A DNA stretch of 64,000 bases from Polyangiaceae bacterium (GCA_016715885.1 JADJXL010000022.1:139588-203587), one strand, 5' to 3'. Shown: positions 11,701-42,482, numbered from the stretch's first letter. The notes: generated by a model from the letters alone, not told the origin. Numbers and translations: made by a program.

Positions 11701-13645
11701 TTTCCGCGGCGCCTCGGAGAAGTTTGTCCCGCTCATCCTCGATTGTCGATCCAGGCGAATCGAGCTCGAGCAAGCGGTTGGCCGCTTCGGTGAGCACGAG
11801 TGCTGCACGCGTTCCTGGTTGCATCGATTGCGATAGCTCGGAAAGGATCGTCGCGGCTTCTGTCGGCTCGGCACTCGCCGCGGCTGCGCGGGCCGCTGCT
11901 TCGTGCGCGGAATCCGCTGCTCGTGCACGCGCGTAGCTTTCGTTTGCGAGTTTCGTGTTGCCCGCGAGCTCGGCGAGCAGTGCTGCTGCCAGCGCGCCGT
12001 CGCGGTCACCTTCGGCTTGCTCTCCACGCCATCCTGCGACTGCGTTGGCAATCTTGGCGCCCGCTTTTCCTTCGAGGTCGAGCTCGAGCGTGAGCGCACG
12101 ACCCGTTCCACTCTCGGGAACGAACTCCGTGTAACCAAGGATCGATGCTGCGAGCGCATCGTTCGACGTGAGGGGTTTGTCGTCGGCACGAAGCGCACCG
12201 AGAGCGCGACCAAGAGCCGCGCCGGCGCGAGCTGCCGTAGCACCGGCTCCGATGAGGTTCGTCGACGGGTTCTCGAGATCCCGCGTCACGGCGCTCGAAG
12301 CTGCAAGGAGCGGGATGAGATCGTCATCGCCCGCGGCTGCTTCGACGGCTTGTTCGAACACTTCGCGCGAGCCGCCCGTGAGGGCCGTGAGTGCAAGTCG
12401 ATCGCCCGCAGAGAACGCGATCGTGTCGCTGCCTTCGATCGCCGAGCGGGCTGCCTGCGCATCACCGAGCTCGATGGCGCGTGCTGCGAGCGCACGGCGC
12501 GCATCGGCGTCGTGTGTACCGTCGAGAGCTCCACGCAAGGCTTCGATCGCGTTGCCTCGCGTTTCCTTTCGTGCTGCCGCAAGCATGCTCGCGAGCCATC
12601 CCGCGCCGCCCTTGAGCGACGCGGCACTCTGCAATCGACCGAGCGTGGCGACGGCGGACGACACGTCGCCACTTTCGAGTGCTGCGCGCGCTCGGAGCAG
12701 CGCGTCGTACGTGGACACGACGTTGCGTACGCCGCGAGGAGCGTTGCCGCGATGGATGGACACCTTGGAGAAGGCGTCACGCAAGGCTGACAGGTCCTTC
12801 GTTTCCGGCGCGCGAACTTTCGTGAACGCGCTCGGATCCGTTGCATCTCCAAGCGCTTCGGTGAAGCGCTGCACGAAGGGACGCGGATCTGCCGCGTCCA
12901 CGCGCTGCGCAACGTCGAGCCGCTTCTTGGCGCCGTCGTCGTCCTCGAGCCGAACGCGAGCGATATCGGAGCCGAGCATCGCGGCGTGCGCGCGCGCTGC
13001 GTTCGTCGGCAAAACGCGCGCTTCGCTGTCGAGCACTTCGAGTGCACCTTGCCAGTCTTGGTCCCGCATGAGCAGGCCGCGAAGCTGATGGTGAGCAAGC
13101 GGCGAGCTTGGTGCGAGCGTGCGCACTTCGGCAGCAATGGCCCGGGCTGTTTGCTCTTCGCCAGCCATTGCATACAGCTCGCACACGGCCACGAGAGCTC
13201 GTGCGCGCGCCGCCTTGTCCTCGATGGCCTCGGCTTCCGCTCGAAGCCACGCAGCGCGTTCTGCCCACGCATCGCGTTGTTGCGTGCCGACCAGATGCGC
13301 CGACGCGTCCTGTTCGTCCGGGAACGATGGAGCGGCGTCCACTGCCTTGCGTTCGGGACGCGATGCAGGAGCTTCTTCTTCGATGAGATCGGCCCCATCG
13401 ATGGTTTCCTCGTCCGCCGCCATGCTCGCGTCCGCCGCAAGGAGCGCTTCGACCACGCCATCGGGCTGACGCATCGTCGTCTCTTCCTCGATGGCGTCGG
13501 CCTCGACTTCGGACGAACCTTCTTCGGCGGGCGGCGCACGCAACGCGCCGAGCAGCTCATCGGGTACTCGAGCCAATAGGGTCGCTTCGTTGTCGTCGTC
13601 GTCAGCAACGTTTGCGATGTCGAAATCGTCTTGGTGATCGCTCAC
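8720..13645 (-). CDS. Giant TPR-repeat protein (about 1640 aa) with an acidic N-terminal region and a C-terminal non-TPR domain of about 250 aa.
   Basis: A long ORF with pervasive TPR-like helical repeats rich in A, L, E and R. The proposed GTG start at 13645 lies 31 nt after the upstream stop and is preceded by GGAGCAAAGGA. The C-terminal domain is paralogous to that of the upstream giant TPR protein. Confidence 0.65.
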   Translation of the reverse strand: MSDHQDDFDIANVADDDDNEATLLARVPDELLGALRAPPAEEGSSEVEADAIEEETTMRQPDGVVEALLAADASMAADEETIDGADLIEEEAPASRPERKAVDAAPSFPDEQDASAHLVGTQQRDAWAERAAWLRAEAEAIEDKAARARALVAVCELYAMAGEEQTARAIAAEVRTLAPSSPLAHHQLRGLLMRDQDWQGALEVLDSEARVLPTNAARAHAAMLGSDIARVRLEDDDGAKKRLDVAQRVDAADPRPFVQRFTEALGDATDPSAFTKVRAPETKDLSALRDAFSKVSIHRGNAPRGVRNVVSTYDALLRARAALESGDVSSAVATLGRLQSAASLKGGAGWLASMLAAARKETRGNAIEALRGALDGTHDADARRALAARAIELGDAQAARSAIEGSDTIAFSAGDRLALTALTGGSREVFEQAVEAAAGDDDLIPLLAASSAVTRDLENPSTNLIGAGATAARAGAALGRALGALRADDKPLTSNDALAASILGYTEFVPESGTGRALTLELDLEGKAGAKIANAVAGWRGEQAEGDRDGALAAALLAELAGNTKLANESYARARAADSAHEAAARAAAASAEPTEAATILSELSQSMQPGTRAALVLTEAANRLLELDSPGSTIEDERDKLLRGAAEMDPHMPLSIHIGEGIARSAGDRDGLIEWLHARRESCEDPIEQARDYLREALITPEGAGHATGLLTHALKARPDDIGLRELFERLSPERPSDRAAFRAERAAASTGAEAARCALDAALEYERDGDLANASVMAKQATLAGENLLAPLCVYRTALAGHGTGELVESLLAHAKATEDPTERLETYERLAELDEVGRNDPGNALLWRRAILEGAPSHLPTLRRIASTLIIAGRDEELEPVVFATAKTLEGPEAIAHAQLAARLRLRLRGWDDTREAVDVAYKNQPRGIWALRQTAAHARAGGDEALALEVDVELAARTERSSEVSTLSLRAAESAERTGNLEKARELLDKAIEATPSHFVLHLERARVLEALGNFADAAESYEAAAQTSITPEERVQGLYKAAVLFADKANDSERARGAFEHVFSTDPSYRDVFQRLKDVYVATNARAELAALLERRLETITDPAERVDMEIMRGRALADIGDAGAAKRALAAALEQYPDHVEALSAFAEVSAKEEDWEGAEQAWIRLARLVSEPERQSDLYLRLGELYDGPLPNAERAELSYQEVLKRFPDNEAAREKLVELYKKTGDTAKALEQQTILINNVEDPEAKCRRTTGLASIYEAMGDTKKAEQTLLQARKTWPKDDTALHALASFYQRTDQAQAANVLLERAVADARRALGTGRFEPYLFSTVATVAELRGKPAQARIARASVAALDGAEVEINGAGEAAGDATLDDLLAPDIMTPAFRDLLQRTGSLLDSAVTFDIASVRGMPLPPPQAELADEIKSIARAYGIGDVKIYQSAALGAVCVPASSHPATIVLGQPLVASENAAVRTFLIHRALKVIQTNASAFSRTAPIDLWPLLAAYLKALNTAFSPQGVDPAKLADASAKIAKAMPANVDPQVRTLATDVIGSIGNRASTLNTAINGWGARAGLLAVGDPNVALAGIAWAGGHTNQPPASGKERLTWIGRNAEARELIVFSVSDAYSDARSRLGLD

Positions 13646-13676: not shown

Positions 13677-16600
13677 TCACCGGACGCCCATGCCGAGCTT
13701 CTTGCGAAGCTCGAGATAGTTGGGCGAAAGCACGAACGAAAGCAGGCGCCGACCGCGCTCACTCTCGGGGATGGTCGAACCAAGCTGATCCCTCGGAATT
13801 CCGAGCAGATCACTCAGGACGATCGAAACATCGCCAGCGGCGATCACCGCCATGCGATCGAGGCTGCGCCGCGCAGCAGCAGCCCAAGCGCGCGCATCTT
13901 GCTTGCTGGAGACGATCTTCAAACACGTCTCCCCAATGCTCTTGCGCACTTTGCGCGAGATCTCTTTGTGCACCGCGCGCTGGATCTCGTTGTAGACCGC
14001 ATAACCGGGGTTGGCGATCTTGATGTCGACCTCGTTGCACGCCGCAATCACGACCGACGCGAGCGCCACTTCGTCGCGCGTTCGCAGCGAAATGATGCCG
14101 CGGCGCAACGCGAATACCGTACGCGCCACGGCCGAACGTGCGGCCGCATCGAAGGGCGCCGCAATCGCCGAACCCAGCACGATCGCTGGGACGTCTCCCG
14201 CAACTCCGCTCACGAGGTTTGGATTCGGACCGCCCACGTACAACTCGAAATCACCCTCGAACCCAACGGCTCCCATCCACTCGGCAACGGCAAGACGTAG
14301 CGGATGACCACCACGCGAATCGATACGCTCCTTCTTGCCTACGCCGAGCGTGCTGAGTGTCGGGCCAAGCGCGAGCGATACGGTCTCGGCCATCTGCACG
14401 AGCAGCTCGGCAATCGGACCACCATCTTCCGGATCGGCAATCTCCGCCATCGCCCTCGCGTCGAGCACGATCTGCGGACGAGCCGCCACGCGTGTGTCGA
14501 GTTTCTTGAGCTCCGATGAGATTGTCGTGTTGGAACGACCGAGTGAAACGAGGCATCCGAGCGTCGCCTGTCGCAACGCCAAGTCCTGCTCGAACTGCGC
14601 AATCTTCGCGAGCCGCTCGACCCGATCCGCATCGCAAGGATCCTCGGCGAGCTTGTTCAAGAGCACCGCCTTGGCGCGGCCGAGTAGGCGCTTCTGTAGC
14701 GACGCGTCGTAGTTGGTGGTCAGCACCATGTCGAGCGCTTCGCCGTCGTCGTTCGACTCGTCGAGCAGCTTCGTCACGGCCGCTTCTGCCTTCAGCGGTT
14801 CCTTGATCTTGTCCCGCCAGATGGCCATCGCGAGCCGCGCAGCCTCCATGCGACCTTCGCGCTTCTCACGCTCTTGCATGAGCTGTTCGAGGATCGCCGT
14901 CGCGCGTGACCACGCACCGGTGCGCGCTGCCACGCGTGCAAGACGTTCACGCACCGGAGGCGTGGACAAACCTGCTTCGTGCAGCCCAACGAGCACGTTG
15001 AGTGCCTTGTCCGGCGCGTTCAGCTTGTTCTCGTAAATGTCCACCGCCGCGACACCGGACATGAGCCGCTGCTGCGTCGGCGCTTCCTTGATCCTCGAGA
15101 GCCGCCCGAGATAATCCGCGGCGTCGCCGAACTTGCCCATCGTGATCGCAATCTCGCCCGACAGCGCGAGTGCGCCGACGTGATCGGGCTCGATCATCGT
15201 GACGTTCTCGAGTGCCGACAACGCTCCTTCGCGATCTCCCTTCTTGCGAAGCACGCGAGCGCGTTCCCAGAACAGCTTGCTGATCTCGACCTCGTCGTCG
15301 GCTACGTCGAGACGGCGGCTCATGATCTCGAGCAGCCGGTCGTCCTCGTTCCGCGCACGAACGCGTCGGAAAAGTTTGTCGAACGCAACCGATCGGCTCG
15401 GATCACGCTCGAATGCACGCGCAAACGAAATCTCGGCGTCGTCGTGCGCTTCGGTGTGCTCGAGCAAAATGAGACCGGCTCTCTCCCAGAATTCGGCGCC
15501 GCGAGCGTCATTGCTGCAGAGCGCGCCGAGCTGCGCGTAGGCGAGCGCCGTCGAGATGTGATCACCGAGCGCCTCGCTTGCCGAACGCACGCCTTCCCAC
15601 GACACGAGGTCATCGGGACGCCGTTCGACGGCAGCGCGGAACGTGGCCAATGCCGCTTCCGTGTTGCCCGATGCAAGCTCGGACCAACCCGCCAAGGCCG
15701 CTGCATCGTTCGAAGCGTCTTCGCCCAACGCTTCGCCAACGTTTTTCAAGGCAAACGCTCGGCGCCGCGGATCGCAACCCGGCAATGACAGGTCCAGGTT
15801 CGTCAAGCGCGTCTTCGCGGACGTACCGGCAAGCAGCGGTTGCGGCATGCTCGGCTGATCCAGCGTTGCCACGATCGACGCGGACGACTCCATCGCAGCC
15901 CAGGGTTCGTCCCCAAGGAACGACGCCACCGCACGCCGCGCAGACACCTCGGCTTCACGATCCTTCGCCGCAAGTGCAGCGCCGAGCCATTCCAGCGCCA
16001 CGTACAGCTTCGGTTCCGCACTGGCCCACGACGCCGCGCGACCCACCGTCGCCGCAACGTCCTGATCGATCGTCCGCGCGATGCGGAATCGTTCCGCACG
16101 CGCGATGGCCGTCGCTTCGTCACCCTGATCCTCGAGGCGATCGAGCGCTCGTTCGATCGCTTCTCGATCCGTCAGCGCATCCGGCCAGCAAAGCCGAGCC
16201 AAACCCGCCGCGACCGTGATGTCGCCCGAACCATCCGCTTCGGCGCGTTCGAGTGCGACGAGCGCTTCGCCGCGATCACCCGCTTCGCCCGAACCAATTT
16301 CCAAACCAAATCGCTCGAGCGCAATGCTCGCCGGATCCGCACCCGTTTCGAGCGCTGTTGCGAGCGCGCGGCGACGACCGTCGAGACTGTCGGGATCGGC
16401 TCCGCGCAGCGCCCACGCAAGCACCGCCGAAGCCGCCTTTGCAGCACTGCCGCGAGCTTGCTCGAGCAGGTCCAGCGTCTTGGCTCGATCACCGAGTCGC
16501 CACGAGAGAAGCGCAGCCTCGATGTAGAGCGCTGCGCCCAAGTCGATGTCGTCGGTTGCCGTTGCACATGCGGCGAGCACCGTGGACGCGGCCGCGAGGT

Positions 16601-18443
16601 TCTCCCCGCGCTGTTCGAGATCCGCGAGGAATATCGCGACGACCTCGTCTCCCGGTGCAGCTTCGTGAAGCTCCCGCAACCGAGCGCGCGCACGTTCGAT
16701 GTCGCCCGTTCGAGCGCTACGAAGCGCCGCGACGACCCACAAGCCACGCGCCAAGTTCGCGTCCGATTCGACGCTCGCCAGCGCTTCGATCGTCTCGGGC
16801 GTCGCACGATACGCAGCTTCGCCCGGCGCCGTTTTCTTGATGCCCAGCGCGTACGCCCCGAGCACTCGACCAAGCCAGCTCGAACCCGTGTCACCGTCGC
16901 TTTCGAGCGCTGCGAGCTTGGCAAAAGCTTCGCCGGCACCCGCTACGTCACCACGCAGCGAACGGCTGCGGCCCACCTCGAACCACAAGCTCGCAACCTC
17001 GCCAGGTTCCGCACCAGCCGCGAGGAGATCCGCCGTTGCTTGCTCGTACCACGCGCTGTCCTTGCGAATCGACGCAAGCATGCGGGCAACCCGCGCGATC
17101 ACGGCAGGGTTCGTCCCGAGCGTTGCGGCTCGCGCGAGCGCTGCTTTGGCCGCATCCGTGTCGCTCGCATTCGACGCCCACACGTATGCAGCAACGAGCG
17201 CCGCGCGAATCTTGCTGTCATTCGTCGGGCAAACTTCACCCGCCGCTTCGAGCGACTTGGCGAGCGCCGAAGGATCTTGCGCATCGCTCAAAAGATCGAG
17301 CTCGAGCGCACGAGCCATGATGGACGCAGGGTCCGCTTCGAGCGCGCTACGCAGAGCCGCGAGCGCACCGTCTCGATCGTTGTCGAGCATGGCGGCTTCG
17401 GCAATACGCAGCCAAAGCGCTGCCGCACCGGGACCCACTGCGCCTCGGTCGAGCTCTTCTCGTGCAAGCGCTGCCGCACCCTTCGCATCGCCCATCGTTT
17501 CCAGCGACGACAAACGCGCTCGAGCAATGACGGACGACTGCGGAAGTTGCTCGGCAGCACGCGCAAGCAGCTTTACCCACGCATCGTGATCTCCTGCCCG
17601 ACGCTTGATCTCCGCACATCGCAGCCACGCATCCGCTGCGCACTCGGGCCGCCGTGCCCATCGCGGAACGCCATTCGCATCTCCGCGTTCGGGTTCGGCA
17701 ATCGCCTCTTCGATGAGCTCCGCTTGGCCTTCGAGGGCACGCGACAGAACGGACGCGTTTTGATCTCGGATCGCGATGGCTTCGAGCGCCTGTTGCGAAC
17801 GGAATCGGCCGTGGCCTTCGAGCGCTGCGGCGGAATCGATGAGATCGTAACCTCGTTGCGCGTCACCCGACTTCGCAGCGAGCTCCGCAAGCTCGATGAA
17901 AAGAAACGCTTTCCACGTGGCGTCCGTCGCAAGCTCCGCCCGCGCTTCGATGGCGCGCATCCGTCCGGCGAGGTCGTTTTCTTTCGCCGCAAGCAGCTCC
18001 AGCTCGAGCCACGGCGTCGGATCCTCGGGATTGGCACTGACGGCTTCTTCGAGCGCCTCTTTCGCCCCTGCAAGATCTTGCTCGTAATCCTGCAAGTACG
18101 CGGCTCGCTCCCAAAACGCGCGCGTGCGTTCCTCCGGCGTCGCCGCTGCGCGCGTGAGCGCGTCGAGCAGCTTGCCCAGGTTTTTGATGGACTTGCGTCG
18201 GGTCAAGATCCGAACGAGCGCCTCGAGCGGCTCACGGAACTGAGGGTCGGCATTGAAGGCCGCGAGATAATCGCGGGCCGCCGCCGGCTCTTCTCCATGC
18301 CGTTCTTCCAGCACGCCGCTTTCGTGAAGAAGCAAGGCCTGTAACGCCTTGTCCTCCTGTGCGGCGGTCTCGGATCGTAGTCGGTTGAGCAAGGCCGCCG
18401 CATCCTCGGCGGGCCCCGTGGGGGTGGATGTCTCTACCGTCAT
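13677..18443 (-). CDS. Giant TPR-repeat protein (about 1590 aa), paralogous in architecture to the downstream gene.
   Basis: A long ORF with TPR-like repeats throughout. The C-terminal about 250 aa (ELYVGGPNPNLVSGVAGDVPAIVLGSAIAAP...) aligns with the C-terminus of the 8720-13645 protein. The start is placed at the ATG at 18443 and is uncertain. Confidence 0.65.
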   Translation of the reverse strand: MTVETSTPTGPAEDAAALLNRLRSETAAQEDKALQALLLHESGVLEERHGEEPAAARDYLAAFNADPQFREPLEALVRILTRRKSIKNLGKLLDALTRAAATPEERTRAFWERAAYLQDYEQDLAGAKEALEEAVSANPEDPTPWLELELLAAKENDLAGRMRAIEARAELATDATWKAFLFIELAELAAKSGDAQRGYDLIDSAAALEGHGRFRSQQALEAIAIRDQNASVLSRALEGQAELIEEAIAEPERGDANGVPRWARRPECAADAWLRCAEIKRRAGDHDAWVKLLARAAEQLPQSSVIARARLSSLETMGDAKGAAALAREELDRGAVGPGAAALWLRIAEAAMLDNDRDGALAALRSALEADPASIMARALELDLLSDAQDPSALAKSLEAAGEVCPTNDSKIRAALVAAYVWASNASDTDAAKAALARAATLGTNPAVIARVARMLASIRKDSAWYEQATADLLAAGAEPGEVASLWFEVGRSRSLRGDVAGAGEAFAKLAALESDGDTGSSWLGRVLGAYALGIKKTAPGEAAYRATPETIEALASVESDANLARGLWVVAALRSARTGDIERARARLRELHEAAPGDEVVAIFLADLEQRGENLAAASTVLAACATATDDIDLGAALYIEAALLSWRLGDRAKTLDLLEQARGSAAKAASAVLAWALRGADPDSLDGRRRALATALETGADPASIALERFGLEIGSGEAGDRGEALVALERAEADGSGDITVAAGLARLCWPDALTDREAIERALDRLEDQGDEATAIARAERFRIARTIDQDVAATVGRAASWASAEPKLYVALEWLGAALAAKDREAEVSARRAVASFLGDEPWAAMESSASIVATLDQPSMPQPLLAGTSAKTRLTNLDLSLPGCDPRRRAFALKNVGEALGEDASNDAAALAGWSELASGNTEAALATFRAAVERRPDDLVSWEGVRSASEALGDHISTALAYAQLGALCSNDARGAEFWERAGLILLEHTEAHDDAEISFARAFERDPSRSVAFDKLFRRVRARNEDDRLLEIMSRRLDVADDEVEISKLFWERARVLRKKGDREGALSALENVTMIEPDHVGALALSGEIAITMGKFGDAADYLGRLSRIKEAPTQQRLMSGVAAVDIYENKLNAPDKALNVLVGLHEAGLSTPPVRERLARVAARTGAWSRATAILEQLMQEREKREGRMEAARLAMAIWRDKIKEPLKAEAAVTKLLDESNDDGEALDMVLTTNYDASLQKRLLGRAKAVLLNKLAEDPCDADRVERLAKIAQFEQDLALRQATLGCLVSLGRSNTTISSELKKLDTRVAARPQIVLDARAMAEIADPEDGGPIAELLVQMAETVSLALGPTLSTLGVGKKERIDSRGGHPLRLAVAEWMGAVGFEGDFELYVGGPNPNLVSGVAGDVPAIVLGSAIAAPFDAAARSAVARTVFALRRGIISLRTRDEVALASVVIAACNEVDIKIANPGYAVYNEIQRAVHKEISRKVRKSIGETCLKIVSSKQDARAWAAAARRSLDRMAVIAAGDVSIVLSDLLGIPRDQLGSTIPESERGRRLLSFVLSPNYLELRKKLGMGVR

Positions 18444-18591
18444 TGGGCTCGCAGCGCCTCTCGCGAACACGGGTTGCTGATGAAGTGCATTCCGCGACGC
18501 GCAGACTAACGAAACGCGCTGTCGAGAGTAAAGCCTCGTCCGCACGGATCGGGCGAACGGTATCTTTCGGTACTTCGCAGGTGACGCTCCG

Positions 18592-35995: not shown

Positions 35996-37360
35996 GTGCC
36001 GACCCCCATGCGGAAAACGAGCCTCGATACGGTACTTCGCCTCAAATCCAAGCATCGCGTGGGCCAGCTTGCCCGGCTGGCGACCGCCATTGCGGAACAA
36101 GGTGGGCTTCTTGGTGACATCACCACATTGCGTGGCGGCGAGACCGACTCACTGCGCGAAGTCACCATCGAAACGGACGATGAAGAGCATCGCGATCGAG
36201 TGATCGAGGCCGTACGCAAGGTCGACGGGGTCGAAGTGCTCGACACGATCGATCGCGTTTTCGATCTGCACCGTGGTGGCAAGCTTCATTCGACGAGCCG
36301 CATCGAGCTGCGTCATCAGCGGGATCTGCGATACATCTATACGCCAGGGGTTGCGCGTGTGGCGCGGGCGATTGAGCGCGAGCCCGAGCGAGCGCGACAT
36401 TTGACGACAATTGGTAATTCGGTTGGTATTTTTACAAATGGCACGCGCGTCTTGGGGTTGGGCAACGTGGGCCCGCTTGCCTCGTTGCCGGTCATGGAAG
36501 GCAAGGCCGTTCTTTATGACAAGTTCGTGGGAATCAGCGCCACGCCGATTCTCGTCGATACGCTCGATGTAAACGAGTTTGTCGAAACGGTATCGCGTTT
36601 GTCGCTCACGTTTGGTGGGATTCATCTCGAGGACATTCGCATTCCGGATTGTTATCGCATCGAGGAAGCGCTCATCGATCGGTTGGAGAAGCCGGTCATG
36701 CATGACGATCAGCATGGAACGGCGACGGTAGCGCTCGCGGCGCTTCTCAATGCGTGCAAAATGACGGGCGTTGCGATCGAAAAGGCGCGCGTTGGTCAGA
36801 TTGGGCTCGGCGCGGCGGGAAGCGCAATTGCGCGGCTCATGATGACGTACGGAGCGCGGGATGTGCTCGTATGCGACAAGTCCGAAGAATCGATGCAATG
36901 GCTGGCGAAGTTTGGAGCGCGCCCCGTGGACCTCGTGACGCTGATGCGCGAAGCGGATATCGTCATTGCTGCGACGGGCAGACCGGGGCTCATCGATCCG
37001 AAGTTGATTCGCCCGGGGCAGGTCATTTTTCCCCTTTCGAATCCGGATCCGGAGATCGAGCCTGCGGATGCAATGGCAGCCGGTGCGGCATTCTGCTCGG
37101 ATGGTCGCAGCATCAACAATGCTCTTGCATTTCCGGGGCTTTTCCGCGCGGCGCTTGCCGTCGAAAGCCGAGCGATCACGCCGGGTATGCGCATTGCCGC
37201 GGCGCGTGCCATTGCGTCGTGTGCCGAGCCGGGCGAAGTGGTGCCTTCGCCGCTATTGCGCAACGTGCACGAAGCGGTCGTTGCGGCCGTGAGCGAAGCG
37301 GCTCGTGCCGAGGGACTCGAATCGACGGCGCGCCTCACGCGTAGCCGCCCGTCCGTTTGA
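35996..37360 (+). CDS. NAD(P)-dependent malic enzyme with an N-terminal ACT domain.
   Basis: An ACT-like N-terminus is followed by conserved malic-enzyme motifs (IYTPGVA, GLGNVGPLASLPVMEGKAVLY, VMHDDQHGTA, GLGAAGSA, SNPDPEI). The start may be the GTG at 35996 or the ATG at 36008. Confidence 0.85.
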   Translation: MPTPMRKTSLDTVLRLKSKHRVGQLARLATAIAEQGGLLGDITTLRGGETDSLREVTIETDDEEHRDRVIEAVRKVDGVEVLDTIDRVFDLHRGGKLHSTSRIELRHQRDLRYIYTPGVARVARAIEREPERARHLTTIGNSVGIFTNGTRVLGLGNVGPLASLPVMEGKAVLYDKFVGISATPILVDTLDVNEFVETVSRLSLTFGGIHLEDIRIPDCYRIEEALIDRLEKPVMHDDQHGTATVALAALLNACKMTGVAIEKARVGQIGLGAAGSAIARLMMTYGARDVLVCDKSEESMQWLAKFGARPVDLVTLMREADIVIAATGRPGLIDPKLIRPGQVIFPLSNPDPEIEPADAMAAGAAFCSDGRSINNALAFPGLFRAALAVESRAITPGMRIAAARAIASCAEPGEVVPSPLLRNVHEAVVAAVSEAARAEGLESTARLTRSRPSV

Positions 37361-37790: not shown

Positions 37791-38291
37791 TCAAGGATCG
37801 CTTTCACTCGTCACCGCCACGACCACAATGGAATGCGGCTGCACTTTGTAAAGCAATCGCCGCGCGTCTATCCGAAGCTGCATGTGATCGTCTTTGCGAC
37901 GATGTAATGCGGACGACCCGCGTGGTGCTGGATCGAACGCCAATGCGTCGATTTCGAGCGCAATCTCTTCACGCGTCGCAGCATCGAGCTTGTCGAGGTC
38001 TCGTTCGGCTCGCTCGAGCATCCACATTTCACGCACGTCGCGCCCTCGTGCCCGCCGACTTGCCCGAGCGGTTTCCCCGCGCCACGGACGAGGCGGTCGC
38101 GTGCCTTGTTCGGCCCATGCCGCAGCCACGGCTTCTTCATCGATGCGTAGCTCCAGCTCTTCGGCGACGCGGGACATCAGATCGGCGGGCAGAAGCTCTT
38201 CGCCTCGAGACATGCGCGTTGCGAGCGCCTGCAAGATGCGCGTCTGTCGCACTCGAACATCCGCTTCCGTTTCGAGCGACGGGGTGTTCAT
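37791..38291 (-). CDS. RelE/ParE-family toxin-like domain (C-terminal about 78 aa from the ATG at 38027), fused in frame to an N-terminal antitoxin-like segment of about 88 aa.
   Basis: The C-terminal half (MWMLERAERDLDKLDAATREEIALEIDALAFDPAPRGSSALHRRKDDHMQLRIDARRLLYKVQPHSIVVVAVTSE) aligns with the RelE/ParE consensus. The upstream segment has no intervening stop codon. Confidence 0.5.
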   Translation of the reverse strand: MNTPSLETEADVRVRQTRILQALATRMSRGEELLPADLMSRVAEELELRIDEEAVAAAWAEQGTRPPRPWRGETARASRRARGRDVREMWMLERAERDLDKLDAATREEIALEIDALAFDPAPRGSSALHRRKDDHMQLRIDARRLLYKVQPHSIVVVAVTSESDP

Positions 38292-39264: not shown

Positions 39265-40590
39265 ATGCGAAGCACATCCTTCACGTTACACGTAACTTGT
39301 GGCCTATTCATTTTCGCGGCCGTTGCCTGCGAAACCGGCAATGTAAAAGATGACCCCGTCAATTCCAGTGGCGGCGGCGGATCCGGCGCCGGCACCGCAA
39401 GCGTCGTCGATCCCATGTGCGGTGTCGAAGCGACCGTCGATTCGACGCCGACATATGCCGAAGTCGTTGCACCCATCATCATGAAAAATTGCGCCAATTG
39501 CCATCGTGATGGTGGCATTGCGCCATTTACACTGCTCACGTACGAAGAAACCAAGCTGCTCGCGGGCCTCATCAAGGATCGCACGACCGCGCGCGAAATG
39601 CCCCCATTCAATCCGAACAACTGCGGCCATTGCAATACATTCCAGGATGCTCGGTGGCTCACGCCTGAAGAAATCGCCATCCTTGCTGCGTGGGCGGATG
39701 CCGGAGCGCCCTCCGGCGACTTGGCCAAAGCACCTTCGCCTCCTGCGCCGCCGCAAGGTTTGACCGAAGCGAATGCAACGTGGGACATGGGCGTCGCGTA
39801 TACGCCGGACGCCAAACTTGCAGACGATTACCGATGTTTCCTCGTCGACGCGCAAACCGCGACGGACAAGTTCCTCACCGGATTCGAAGTGCTGCCTGGC
39901 GACGCACGCGTCGTGCATCACGTGATTGCGTACACGCTCGATTCAGACGCTGCGCAGACTCAGGCCGAGGCGCTCGATGCCCAAGATCCGACCCCCGGAT
40001 ACCGATGTTTCGGAGGCGCCGAGGTTGCCAGTCGATTTACCGTCGGCTGGGCGCCGGGCGGTGGTCCGACTCGATTTCCCGCGGGTACGGGATTGCGAGT
40101 TCCTGGCGGCCGCAAAATCGTCATGCAAGTTCATTACAACTTGGCGAGCGGCGCGCTCCCGGATCAAACCAAGATCAAAGTCAATCTCGTAGACAAAGTC
40201 GACAAGGAGGCGACCATTTCCCAAGTGGGCACCAGCAATATCTTTTTGCCTCCCGGACAACCTCTGGTCGAGGTTTCCCATGAAGAGACGATCCCTTCGC
40301 AGGTGCCAACCGTGACCATTTGGGGCGTCGCGCCGCACATGCACGGCGCTGGAAAAACGATGCGCGTCACGACGCAATCGGGTGGGCAATCGCAGTGCCT
40401 GATCGACGTGACCAACTGGGATTTCCACTGGCAATCGTTCTCGATGTACGAAACGCCCCTCAAGGCAAGCGGCGGCGATTTGGTCAAGCTGACCTGCGGC
40501 TACGATACCACCGGACGCGATGCCGTCACGACGTTCGGCGAAGGCACCGAAGACGAAATGTGTATTGCGTTTTTCTACGTCACGCTGTGA
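39265..40590 (+). CDS. Lipoprotein with an N-terminal PSCyt1-type cytochrome c domain (CxxCH) fused to a copper type II monooxygenase-like (PHM/DBH-like) domain.
   Basis: The lipobox is FAAVAC. The heme motif is CANCHRDGGIAPFTLLTYEE...REMPPF. Copper-site-like histidines are HHVIAY, QVHYN and HMHGAGKTM, followed by NWDFHWQ. Confidence 0.55.
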   Translation: MRSTSFTLHVTCGLFIFAAVACETGNVKDDPVNSSGGGGSGAGTASVVDPMCGVEATVDSTPTYAEVVAPIIMKNCANCHRDGGIAPFTLLTYEETKLLAGLIKDRTTAREMPPFNPNNCGHCNTFQDARWLTPEEIAILAAWADAGAPSGDLAKAPSPPAPPQGLTEANATWDMGVAYTPDAKLADDYRCFLVDAQTATDKFLTGFEVLPGDARVVHHVIAYTLDSDAAQTQAEALDAQDPTPGYRCFGGAEVASRFTVGWAPGGGPTRFPAGTGLRVPGGRKIVMQVHYNLASGALPDQTKIKVNLVDKVDKEATISQVGTSNIFLPPGQPLVEVSHEETIPSQVPTVTIWGVAPHMHGAGKTMRVTTQSGGQSQCLIDVTNWDFHWQSFSMYETPLKASGGDLVKLTCGYDTTGRDAVTTFGEGTEDEMCIAFFYVTL

Positions 40591-40609: not shown

Positions 40610-41428
40610 TTAGGCCATTCCTTTTTGAGCAAGCCATTCTCGAGCGAGCTCGTCCATGTCGTCCATCTGCAAAGGATGGAAATCGGGTCGCAGGTATGCC
40701 TTGACCATGCGAAACAGCCTGCGAGGGCGGACGCCAATCGTTTTGAATTTCGCGAAATCGGCGCTGAAGTTCGTGGACTGCCCCCGCGTGTCTTGCCGAA
40801 TCAGCGTAATCATGGCCGCTGCCCAAAATGCCCCGAGCAGCAATGTGGCCATGGCAAACCCTGCCATACGCAAGCCATAACCAGGAGCAACCTTGTTCAG
40901 CACGTCGAAGGCGACCGCGCGGTGCTCGATTTCTTCAGACGCATGCCAATTGAGCAAGTCGCGTAATGCAGGGTGCGCCTTGTCGAGCAGCTTGTAGCGC
41001 AAAGCGCTGTGAGCAAGCGCCGCCGTGTAATGTTCCAATGCGGCGGTCGTCGCGAGGCGAAATGCGGCCGGGGCGTTCGGCTCGATGTACTCATAACCGA
41101 TTTTCTCGTATAGCCGCAGAAATTCACGAATCTCGTACCCTTGCGCTTCCATGCATGCGAAAAAATCTTCGTGCGCGCGGGCGTGACGGCCTTCTTGGCC
41201 AAAGAATCCGCGCACTTGCTTTTTCAGCTCGGGGTCTTCGAGTTTGTCCAAGTAATGATGAACGCTGCGGACGAAAAACCGTTCGCCTGCAGGGAAAAGC
41301 AAATTTACGCCATTGACCATGTGGCTGGCGAGCATGCTATCGGCGAACCAGTGCTTGGGGATGGTCTCGTCGAAAACGAGGTCCGGATTGCGAGGCTTGA
41401 TCGCGGGGCGGCTGGCAACGGTTTGCAT
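40610..41428 (-). CDS. Predicted metal-dependent hydrolase (COG3687 family).
   Basis: Length and motifs match (HHYLDKLEDPELKKQVRGFFGQEGRHARAHEDF, EEIEHRAVAFDVL). Confidence 0.6.
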   Translation of the reverse strand: MQTVASRPAIKPRNPDLVFDETIPKHWFADSMLASHMVNGVNLLFPAGERFFVRSVHHYLDKLEDPELKKQVRGFFGQEGRHARAHEDFFACMEAQGYEIREFLRLYEKIGYEYIEPNAPAAFRLATTAALEHYTAALAHSALRYKLLDKAHPALRDLLNWHASEEIEHRAVAFDVLNKVAPGYGLRMAGFAMATLLLGAFWAAAMITLIRQDTRGQSTNFSADFAKFKTIGVRPRRLFRMVKAYLRPDFHPLQMDDMDELAREWLAQKGMA

Positions 41429-41654
41429 GGGGAACCTCGATAAGAAGCGTAACGAAAATGCCTTCGCGCGTCAACCGTTTTGACGCACGAGGTCAATGGC
41501 GCTCGTGCAATGCAATGGAGGGAGCTGCCGGTTGAGACAAACACTTGGTGTTCCAACGAATTGGCTTAGCTTGTTGAATCCGCTGCGCTGCGAAGCACAA
41601 AAGTTTGTCACTACCCACTTTCCTTGCCCTCCGTCGCGTGCTAACTTCGAACGC

Positions 41655-42482
41655 ATGACCGTGCTGCACACGCACATTCCGCGGAGCACTGGACCGATCG
41701 AGCTGCGCGATCTCGGGCCGAATGGCAGGCCGCTCGGTACGCGTGCCGATTGTTACGACGGCAGTCCTTGGGAGCTTCATCGCGGAGAGCTGGTTCGGCA
41801 GATGAGCAGCAACGGTATCCACTCGATCCTCATGTTTTTGCTTGGAACGCTGTTTCGCACGCATGCGCGAGACGGTCATGACGTCATGGGTGACGTCTAT
41901 TGCGAGCTCATCGATCCTGACGAGACGTTGTCGATACGCGCTCCGGATGTCGTGCTGGCGCGCTCCGTAAAGCGGCTGAAGGACGGGCCCTTCCAGGGGA
42001 TCCCAATCGTCGCCGTCGAGATTCGTGCGACGCAGTCGAAAAAGCAGCTCGAGGAAAAGGTCAAGCTGTACCTCGAACACGACTGGCCTTGCATTTGGCT
42101 CGTGCACGCGGAGCGCCGAGAGATCGAGATCGTTACGCCGGACGCAGCCCCCGTCGTGTATCGCCATGGCACCGACGTGCCGCTCGTGCCGGAGCTCGAT
42201 AAGTATGAGCTCAAACGAATTCCCGTCGCAGCGCTGTTCGACAAGGAGAAGTTCAAGTCGTTCTGCGATGGATGGGTTCATCAATTGGCCGCAGCTCGCG
42301 CACACGCGCGATCACTCCGCAGCGTGCTCGATGCGCGCAAGTTTGTCGTGGCCACGGACGTGTACCAGCGCATCGTGACCACCAAGGACATCGAAGCGCT
42401 CGAACGATGGCTCGTCTTGGCGGCAACCGCGACATCTGCGGAAGCTTTCGAACGAAGCGTTCAAGCGGACGCGCACGCCTAA
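41655..42482 (+). CDS. Uma2-family (DUF820) putative endonuclease with a C-terminal extension.
   Basis: A PD-(D/E)xK-like core is present (PDVVLARS..., VAVEIRATQS, EEKVKLYLEHDWPCIWLV). Confidence 0.55.
   Translation: MTVLHTHIPRSTGPIELRDLGPNGRPLGTRADCYDGSPWELHRGELVRQMSSNGIHSILMFLLGTLFRTHARDGHDVMGDVYCELIDPDETLSIRAPDVVLARSVKRLKDGPFQGIPIVAVEIRATQSKKQLEEKVKLYLEHDWPCIWLVHAERREIEIVTPDAAPVVYRHGTDVPLVPELDKYELKRIPVAALFDKEKFKSFCDGWVHQLAAARAHARSLRSVLDARKFVVATDVYQRIVTTKDIEALERWLVLAATATSAEAFERSVQADAHA

Follow-up and report, generated by a model that had tools for sequence, protein, structure and literature searches.

PHM and DBH are the textbook animal enzymes of peptide-hormone amidation and noradrenaline synthesis. 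To our knowledge, bacteria generally make no ascorbate, the reductant of DBH, and a PHM-type enzyme in a bacterial envelope would need another one. Enzymes of the Cu2 monooxygenase family hold two Cu ~11 A apart, or closer together in closed forms, with ascorbate as reductant. All those characterized take up two electrons from outside in each turnover (PMC12164859). In PHM, CuH is the electron-transfer copper, and our reading of mechanism draws on established PHM/DBH work (PMC12164859, PMC4846438). Human DBH (4ZEL) carries an extra N-terminal domain before its CuH domain, consisting of a DOMON beta-sandwich and a dimerization domain (PMC4846438). For both enzymes there is debate about the electron path from CuH to CuM, and about whether domain closure creates a binuclear site.

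A fused cytochrome c is also known from copper nitrite reductases such as NirK of Ralstonia pickettii and Pseudoalteromonas haloplanktis. In these periplasmic copper enzymes the physiological cytochrome c donor is built into the enzyme's own chain and passes single electrons to an electron-transfer copper. The cytochrome domain of cellobiose dehydrogenase donates electrons to lytic polysaccharide monooxygenases (PMC5987398), where a heme domain, instead of small molecules such as ascorbate, reduces a copper monooxygenase. In Geobacter sulfurreducens, PccH (4RLR) carries electrons in the periplasm as a free-standing monoheme cytochrome c, and its potential is unusually low, at -35 mV (PMC13591261).

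Here we describe a gene whose product is very probably a fusion of a heme c module with a two-copper monooxygenase. It lies within a 64,000-nucleotide stretch of a Polyangiaceae bacterium (GCA_016715885.1 JADJXL010000022.1:139588-203587; hereafter the window). The 441-residue ORF begins with ATG and fills its interval exactly (Table 1), and a Polyangiaceae metagenome-assembled genome contains the identical protein, annotated as 'hypothetical protein IPM54_32855'. A reading made from the sequence alone (the sequence-only reading) had placed a c-type heme domain and a PHM/DBH-like copper domain in one lipoprotein; every motif that it quoted is present, and the nucleotide coordinates of the motifs were verified by translation.

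Table 1. Features of the fusion gene and its product; positions are counted from the first nucleotide of the window unless given as residues.
Feature	Position	Strand	Remark
Complete ORF, 441 aa + stop: lipoprotein signal, linker, putative monoheme cytochrome c, PHM/DBH-type Cu monooxygenase core	39265..40590	+	
Predicted signal peptide with lipobox, residues 1-22, MRSTSFTLHVTCGLFIFAAVAC; lipidation site Cys22	39265..39330	+	C22 in 45/45
Gly/Ser-rich tether, residues 23-60, includes C52	39331..39444	+	
Putative monoheme c-type cytochrome module, residues ~61-145, PccH-like fold	39445..39699	+	
Heme attachment motif C76-A-N-C79-H80 (CANCH)	39490..39504	+	45/45 and 84/84
R110-E-M112-P-P motif (REMPP); M112 putative sixth heme ligand	39592..39606	+	Ligand role from conservation
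C123, putative disulfide partner of C378	39631..39633	+	Cys co-variation
Pro-rich inter-module linker, residues 146-170	39700..39774	+	Model: no regular secondary structure
CuH (N-terminal) monooxygenase domain, PF01082, residues 187-292	39823..40140	+	
CuH ligands H218, H219	39916-39921	+	Inside PF01082 domain
CuH ligand H290, in QVHYN	40132-40134	+	Inside PF01082 domain
C191, C248 in CuH domain	residues 191, 248	+	Equivalent to PHM disulfide C81-C126
CuM (C-terminal) monooxygenase domain, PF03712, residues 317-437	40213..40575	+	
CuM ligands H358-M-H360 (HMH)	40336-40344	+	Inside PF03712 domain
CuM ligand M432, in DEMC	40558-40560	+	Inside PF03712 domain
C378 in CuM domain	40396-40398	+	Putative partner of C123
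C411, C433 in CuM domain	residues 411, 433	+	Equivalent to PHM disulfide C293-C315

With PHM, the catalytic core of PAM (1PHM, 1OPM, 6ALA), the window protein shares the two beta-sandwich domains, the His3 CuH and His2Met CuM sites and two disulfides, at about 20% identity. Unlike PHM, it is bacterial, predicted to be lipid-anchored and preceded by a cytochrome c; it has neither equivalents of R240, N316 and Y318 nor a PAL partner, and it possesses an extra inter-module cysteine pair. DBH shares the catalytic core and also has a domain ahead of the CuH domain, but in the window protein that domain is predicted to be a helical c-type cytochrome. PccH stands free, whereas the module described here is joined to an enzyme, apparently with a disulfide staple in addition, and its sequence similarity to PccH is weak. 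The NirK fusions differ in their unrelated cupredoxin fold, in reducing nitrite and in the C-terminal position of their cytochrome, whereas the cellobiose dehydrogenase system has a b-type heme in a mobile domain on a separate protein, a mononuclear histidine-brace copper and fungal secretion.

The copper core is recognized by both Cu2 monooxygenase models of Pfam at scores exceeding the curated cut-offs, a search that had been suggested as a check of the sequence-only reading. Cu2_monoox_C reaches 54.7 bits against a cut-off of 23 (E 1e-14) and Cu2_monooxygen 32.7 bits against 30 (E 9.4e-8). Searched with the single sequence, the PDB holds only two relatives, PHM from rat (E 1.5e-9) and DBH from human (E 1e-4), and a profile of 45 homologues matched the two at 1e-18 and 7.5e-17, spanning the whole PHM catalytic core. 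The histidine clusters and methionine that had been ascribed to a copper type II monooxygenase fall in register with the six ligands of PHM, whose residue numbers we counted along the single-sequence PDB alignment. At CuH, vvHHvi aligns with tvHHMl (H218/H219 with H107/H108) and lQVHY with LQVHY (H290 with H172), while at CuM PhmH aligns with vHtH (H358/H360 with H242/H244) and dEMC with DEMC (M432 with M314).

These ligands are nearly without exception among relatives. H218, H219, H290 and H360 are present in all members of an alignment of 45 homologues (A1), and H358 and M432 in 44/45. Genome loci supplied a set of 86 family ORFs, in which the five copper-ligand histidines occur in 86/86 and M432 in 85/86, with a gap in the remaining sequence. 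Second-shell residues Q288, Y291, W389 and E431 are, like the six metal ligands and three disulfide pairs, invariant down to ~35-40% identity, which is the pattern of a conserved catalytic site. Such invariance argues against the idea that the protein is no enzyme at all but a lipoprotein that binds or handles copper in the periplasm, or a pseudoenzyme on the PHM scaffold. Both H358 and M432 are missing from at least one homologue (P0119), several paralogues can occur per genome, and neither a substrate clue nor a conserved operon accompanies the gene, all of which would suit a non-enzymatic role, but we regard this role as very unlikely.

An AlphaFold2 model of the full-length protein, built on the family alignment, has a mean pLDDT of 89.6 and a pTM of 0.84, with residues 1-39 (pLDDT <50) as the sole disordered stretch. 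When the model was compared to the PDB with Foldseek, DBH (2.4e-18) and then some thirty PHM entries (~1e-17 to 1e-12) ranked ahead of all else, with TM scores up to 0.74 for PHM entries, and the predicted fold is the two-domain beta-sandwich. A structure prediction had likewise been proposed as a check; it returned the DBH and PHM fold, and neither a missing HMM match nor a wrong fold was encountered. By sequence and predicted structure, the protein belongs to the wider copper type II ascorbate-dependent monooxygenase family (PHM/DBH/TBM).

The heme module had been labeled PSCyt1, a detail of the sequence-only reading that was not confirmed. PSCyt1 (PF07635) gave no match to the window protein at E up to 10 and found one of 33 homologous modules, at E 0.15; we reject this identity on the HMM comparison, and the resemblance is at the level of the motif only. 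For the window protein alone, the sole cytochrome match in Pfam is Cytochrome_CBB3, which at E 0.005 and 17.6-21.7 bits scores below its cut-off of 27. Modules corresponding to residues 58-168 were cut from the family alignment (A2, 33 sequences) and scanned singly, upon which Cytochrome_CBB3 matched 33/33 (best E 3.1e-6), Cytochrom_C 29/33 (best E 1.3e-4) and the PccH model 23/33 (best E 8e-4). The best PDB match of the A2 profile is also PccH (4rlr), a weak match at E 0.014 that covers only the N-terminal stretch through CxxCH. A Foldseek search with the N-terminal module returned no significant match.

C76, C79, H80 and M112 are conserved in 45/45 sequences of A1. Among the 86 family ORFs, the heme-motif residues are present in all 84 that cover the region, M112 in 85/86, and P113 and P114 in 86/86. 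The module has the CxxCH, the distal methionine and the predicted cytochrome c fold of a class I monoheme c-type cytochrome, with conservation marking the methionine as the likely ligand. Taken together, these comparisons point to a c-type cytochrome with one heme and His/Met ligation, similar in kind to PccH, with M112 as the putative sixth ligand. The sub-threshold Pfam cytochrome scores of the window protein and the lack of a significant Foldseek match could instead speak for a module without heme, in which CxxCH would be a redox or metal-binding motif of a helical domain. We consider this highly unlikely.

The joining of heme and copper modules is a property of the family and not of one protein. 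A word-indexed search yielded upward of 2,185 relatives, of which the best 120 all cover the heme module. An exhaustive search with the catalytic core among cluster representatives found 7,350 at E <= 1e-3, 3,556 at <= 1e-10 and 779 at <= 1e-30. When each species is represented by one genome, relatives are encoded at 589 or more loci, and the 80 of these loci that were examined are nearly all from Myxococcota, including Polyangium, Sorangium cellulosum So ce56, Archangium, Nannocystis, Sandaracinus and others, along with single matches in Bradymonadia, Oligoflexus, Vicinamibacteria and Rokubacteria. Some genomes hold two or more family copies. Exactly one CxxCH is found in 84/86 family ORFs, the two exceptions being truncated calls. 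The motif occurs in 121/146 diverse representatives; most of the 25 that lack it start inside the heme module or the catalytic domain and are truncated gene calls. Two members are diheme. Across these sequences, the heme-copper fusion is constant throughout a large, mostly myxobacterial family.

Databases already assign both Cu2 monooxygenase domains to proteins of this family, which JGI in some cases lists as 'cytochrome c family protein'. We found no characterized member of the family and no NCBIfam model for it. A literature search, whose coverage excluded most subscription journals, turned up no account of a cytochrome c-PHM/DBH fusion in bacteria, nor of bacterial proteins within the Pfam family. 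What is new here is a known catalytic core with a constant, covalently integrated module that would serve as electron donor, in a lineage and a cell compartment that lack the canonical reductant.

The surroundings of the gene vary. In the window, a weakly matching alpha/beta-hydrolase ORF lies 81 bp upstream, and a convergent gene for a PF10118 metal-dependent hydrolase lies 19 bp downstream. Neighbors differ among the window and two other loci (L001 and L002), and the two genes flanking the window gene do not recur in other loci. ORF clustering across 83 loci found no conserved neighbor gene, the only clusters being those of the gene, of the ORF antisense to it and of generic kinases, and context thus offers no clue to the electron donor or the substrate. 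No paralogue of the catalytic core is found elsewhere in the window. An apparent second heme module at 17168-17314 (+) was rejected as a chance match antisense to a 1622-aa gene. A promoter and terminator scan gave nothing above expectation.

Hemes of the c type are attached outside the cytoplasm, and the N terminus is consistent with export. Residues 12-22 (CGLFIFAAVAC) fit a PROSITE PS51257-like lipobox pattern, which was matched in 38/45 homologues; the other seven are near-matches or have obviously miscalled starts. The lipidation cysteine itself is invariant in A1. This conservation would place the protein outside the cytoplasm, in the compartment of c-type heme attachment, and most likely makes it a lipid-anchored protein of the cell envelope.

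Beyond the heme pair, six cysteines are invariant: C123, C191, C248, C378, C411 and C433. Four of them align with PHM cysteines, C191/C248 with C81-C126 and C411/C433 with C293-C315, both of them disulfides in the PHM structure. The remaining two co-vary: C123, which lies towards the end of the heme module, and C378, which belongs to the CuM domain. Both are present in 81 sequences and both are lost in four, which are independent sequences with different replacements in each; the single mismatch is a corrupted ORF (L046). Fisher's test gives p ~5e-7, or 2e-6 with the mismatch counted. We propose that a C123-C378 inter-module disulfide probably staples the cytochrome to the CuM domain. Because the two cysteines are kept or lost together, the cytochrome appears to be fixed on the catalytic core, as would be expected of a dedicated electron wire. 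Another pair, C52/C120, co-occurs only in a Polyangium subclade that includes the window protein.

We favor, as the likelier account though with appreciable room for doubt, a model of a lipid-anchored envelope enzyme where the heme delivers electrons to a non-coupled two-copper core and CuM hydroxylates a substrate. The analysis itself shows the domain architecture, the conserved metal ligands, the fold, the constant fusion and the cysteine co-variation; heme and copper loading, localization, route, direction and chemistry are all deduced. A periplasmic electron carrier of the respiratory chain would reduce the heme, which would hand single electrons to the copper center, most simply to CuH. 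CuM, with its His2Met site, would activate O2, and a C-H bond of the bound substrate would be hydroxylated there. The heme would thereby do the job of ascorbate in animal secretory vesicles. If the module has a low potential like that of PccH, this would favor reduction of Cu(II). The sequence-only reading had suggested that a built-in heme donor could replace ascorbate, and the constant fusion and co-varying inter-module cysteines fit that proposal, but in part only. A fused cytochrome is a relay that needs an outside reductant, and it would therefore replace ascorbate as the immediate reductant of copper and not as the ultimate source of electrons.

The staple reaches CuM and not CuH, which makes the point of electron entry uncertain. 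It is reasonable to ask whether electrons run the other way, with the copper core oxidizing a substrate and its electrons leaving through the heme to the respiratory chain, as in a dehydrogenase or oxidase, or whether the heme gates the enzyme by sensing redox state or a gas. The direction of flow is not determined by the architecture alone, the staple lies on the domain that does not hold the electron-transfer copper, and fused cytochrome c domains are the electron exits of several periplasmic dehydrogenases. However, neither the His3 nor the His2Met ligand set has lost a member, and an invariant His/Met pair would better fit a six-coordinate electron carrier than a ligand-binding sensor. The characterized family members, moreover, all take in two external electrons per turnover (PMC12164859). 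We therefore consider reverse flow or sensing unlikely, and continue with heme-to-copper delivery as the preferred model.

What the enzyme may hydroxylate is less easily approached. The residues by which PHM binds the carboxylate and backbone of the glycine are replaced: R240 aligns with A356 (A/F/L/G/W in the family), N316 with I434 (I/L/V/F) and Y318 with F436 (F/Y/G and others). By these residues the protein falls outside PHM proper. The pocket appears to be largely hydrophobic. No PAL lyase, fused or co-encoded, was found in the window neighborhood or in the 83 loci. Relatives of 840-910 aa do carry a C-terminal propeller in a ~450-aa extension, which was considered as a PAL-like domain and rejected, being an SBBP propeller related to CylK (E 2e-27) and not of the NHL/PAL type. 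Since the peptidylglycine-binding residues are lost and neither a PAL partner nor a conserved neighbor is present, the substrate is probably not a glycine-extended peptide.

The same observations bear on whether the protein could be a bacterial peptidylglycine alpha-hydroxylating monooxygenase in the strict sense, amidating peptides, with the heme merely substituting for ascorbate. In favor of this, peptide natural products are numerous in myxobacteria, no PDB sequence is closer than PHM, and the catalytic core and metal ligands are conserved. Yet the equivalents of R240, N316 and Y318 are gone, PAL is neither fused nor adjacent, the propeller of the long relatives is of the CylK-like SBBP type, and precursor-peptide or RiPP genes do not recur nearby in the 83 loci. 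A peptide-amidating role is accordingly highly improbable, and the heme-driven hydroxylation of some other substrate remains our working model.

The predicted model invites a further speculation about geometry. Using conformer assignments for PHM and DBH structures from earlier work (PMC12164859, PMC4846438), we found that it fits closed conformers better than the 11 A or 14 A forms, with TM scores normalized by the length of the target in the PHM comparisons and by that of the query in the DBH ones. Closed PHM H108A-citrate scored 0.74 (6ala_A) and 0.71 (6ala_C), compared to 0.65 for 1PHM (11 A) and 0.58 and 0.60 for the fully open, ~14 A forms 8dsj_A and 8dsl_A; PHM H107A-citrate (5wja_D) scored 0.70. 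Within human DBH, the closed chain (4zel_A) scored 0.50 and the open chain (4zel_B) 0.45. As the cytochrome is sequence-adjacent to the CuH domain but apparently stapled to CuM, it could lock the two domains together. It is tempting to speculate that the family is a natural closed, disulfide-stapled PHM/DBH core, with coppers ~4-5 A apart and a binuclear site wired directly to the heme, although we think this rather doubtful. If true, the enzyme would have no need of the movement from open to closed domains that is under debate for PHM and DBH, and would provide a natural test of mononuclear CuM versus binuclear copper mechanisms, while also catalyzing a hydroxylation in the myxobacterial envelope.

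Beyond this question of geometry, a bacterial family hard-wired to a cytochrome c would show how PHM/DBH chemistry can be powered without ascorbate. It would also offer a soluble protein that can be expressed in bacteria and whose own donor can be followed spectroscopically, so that electron transfer into the copper sites could be measured. The significance of the family is limited in that gene neighborhood does not narrow down the substrate. In a broader context, the family would point to O2-dependent hydroxylation in the envelope of the myxobacteria, which are prolific makers of natural products.

The AlphaFold2 model of the lipoprotein (m0448b65ded80) predicts an inter-domain arrangement that fits closed PHM (6ALA) and DBH (4ZEL chain A) more closely than the open forms. 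Its TM values are 0.71-0.74 against 6ALA, compared with 0.65 against the 11 Å form and 0.58-0.60 against the 14 Å forms.

Two extra cysteines, Cys52 and Cys120, co-occur without exception in our alignment of 45 homologues (7/7) and are confined to the close Polyangium subclade. They probably form a disulfide specific to that subclade, which would tie the N-terminal tether to the heme module.

Features of the window discussed here
Feature	Position	Strand	Remark
Cys52	39418-39420		paired by co-occurrence with Cys120
Cys120	39622-39624		paired by co-occurrence with Cys52
PF10118 'predicted metal-dependent hydrolase' gene	40610-41428	-	E 2.4e-71
Uma2-family putative endonuclease gene	41496-42482	+	
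166-aa ORF	37791-38291	-	
Malic-enzyme-family gene	35996-37360	+	
1622-aa ORF	13677-18545	-	very large

The PF10118 gene is convergent with the monooxygenase gene, their stop codons lying 19 bp apart, and its presence is not conserved beside orthologues of the latter. A Uma2-family gene follows the monooxygenase gene at a distance of ~0.9 kb in the window, and another (12485-13276 of the Chondromyces apiculatus locus, L002) is found ~3 kb downstream of the orthologue there. Because no Uma2-family gene recurs in the clustering of ORFs from 83 loci, this shared proximity is probably a coincidence. Elsewhere in the window, the 166-aa ORF has a weak ParE-toxin match in its C-terminal half (E 0.0013), and the N-terminal part of the malic-enzyme-family protein weakly matches ACT domains (E ~5e-4 to 1e-3); all these matches are below the cut-off. 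The 1622-aa ORF appears by eye to be rich in helical repeats; a weak heme-module match on the strand antisense to it was dismissed as spurious.

Among the family relatives, the N-terminal region is diheme, with two CxxCH motifs, in P0131 (546 aa) and P0221 (908 aa). In P0119, a 427-aa protein from a Myxococcota MAG, the CuM ligands His358 and Met432 are lost together, each replaced by arginine, and the heme motif and CuH histidines are retained. P0119 is perhaps a paralogue that has degenerated or been repurposed.

Seven relatives (P0173, P0176, P0181, P0185, P0213, P0232 and P0247), 837-893 aa in length, carry a C-terminal beta-propeller of ~450 aa, encoded 3' of the monooxygenase core. A propeller like that of PAL, the lyase partner of PHM, was considered and rejected for P0185, the sole one tested, whose propeller is instead SBBP-type and CylK-related (E 2e-27). 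CylK is an alkylating enzyme. In these long relatives the propeller may serve to bind substrate or as a second catalytic domain.
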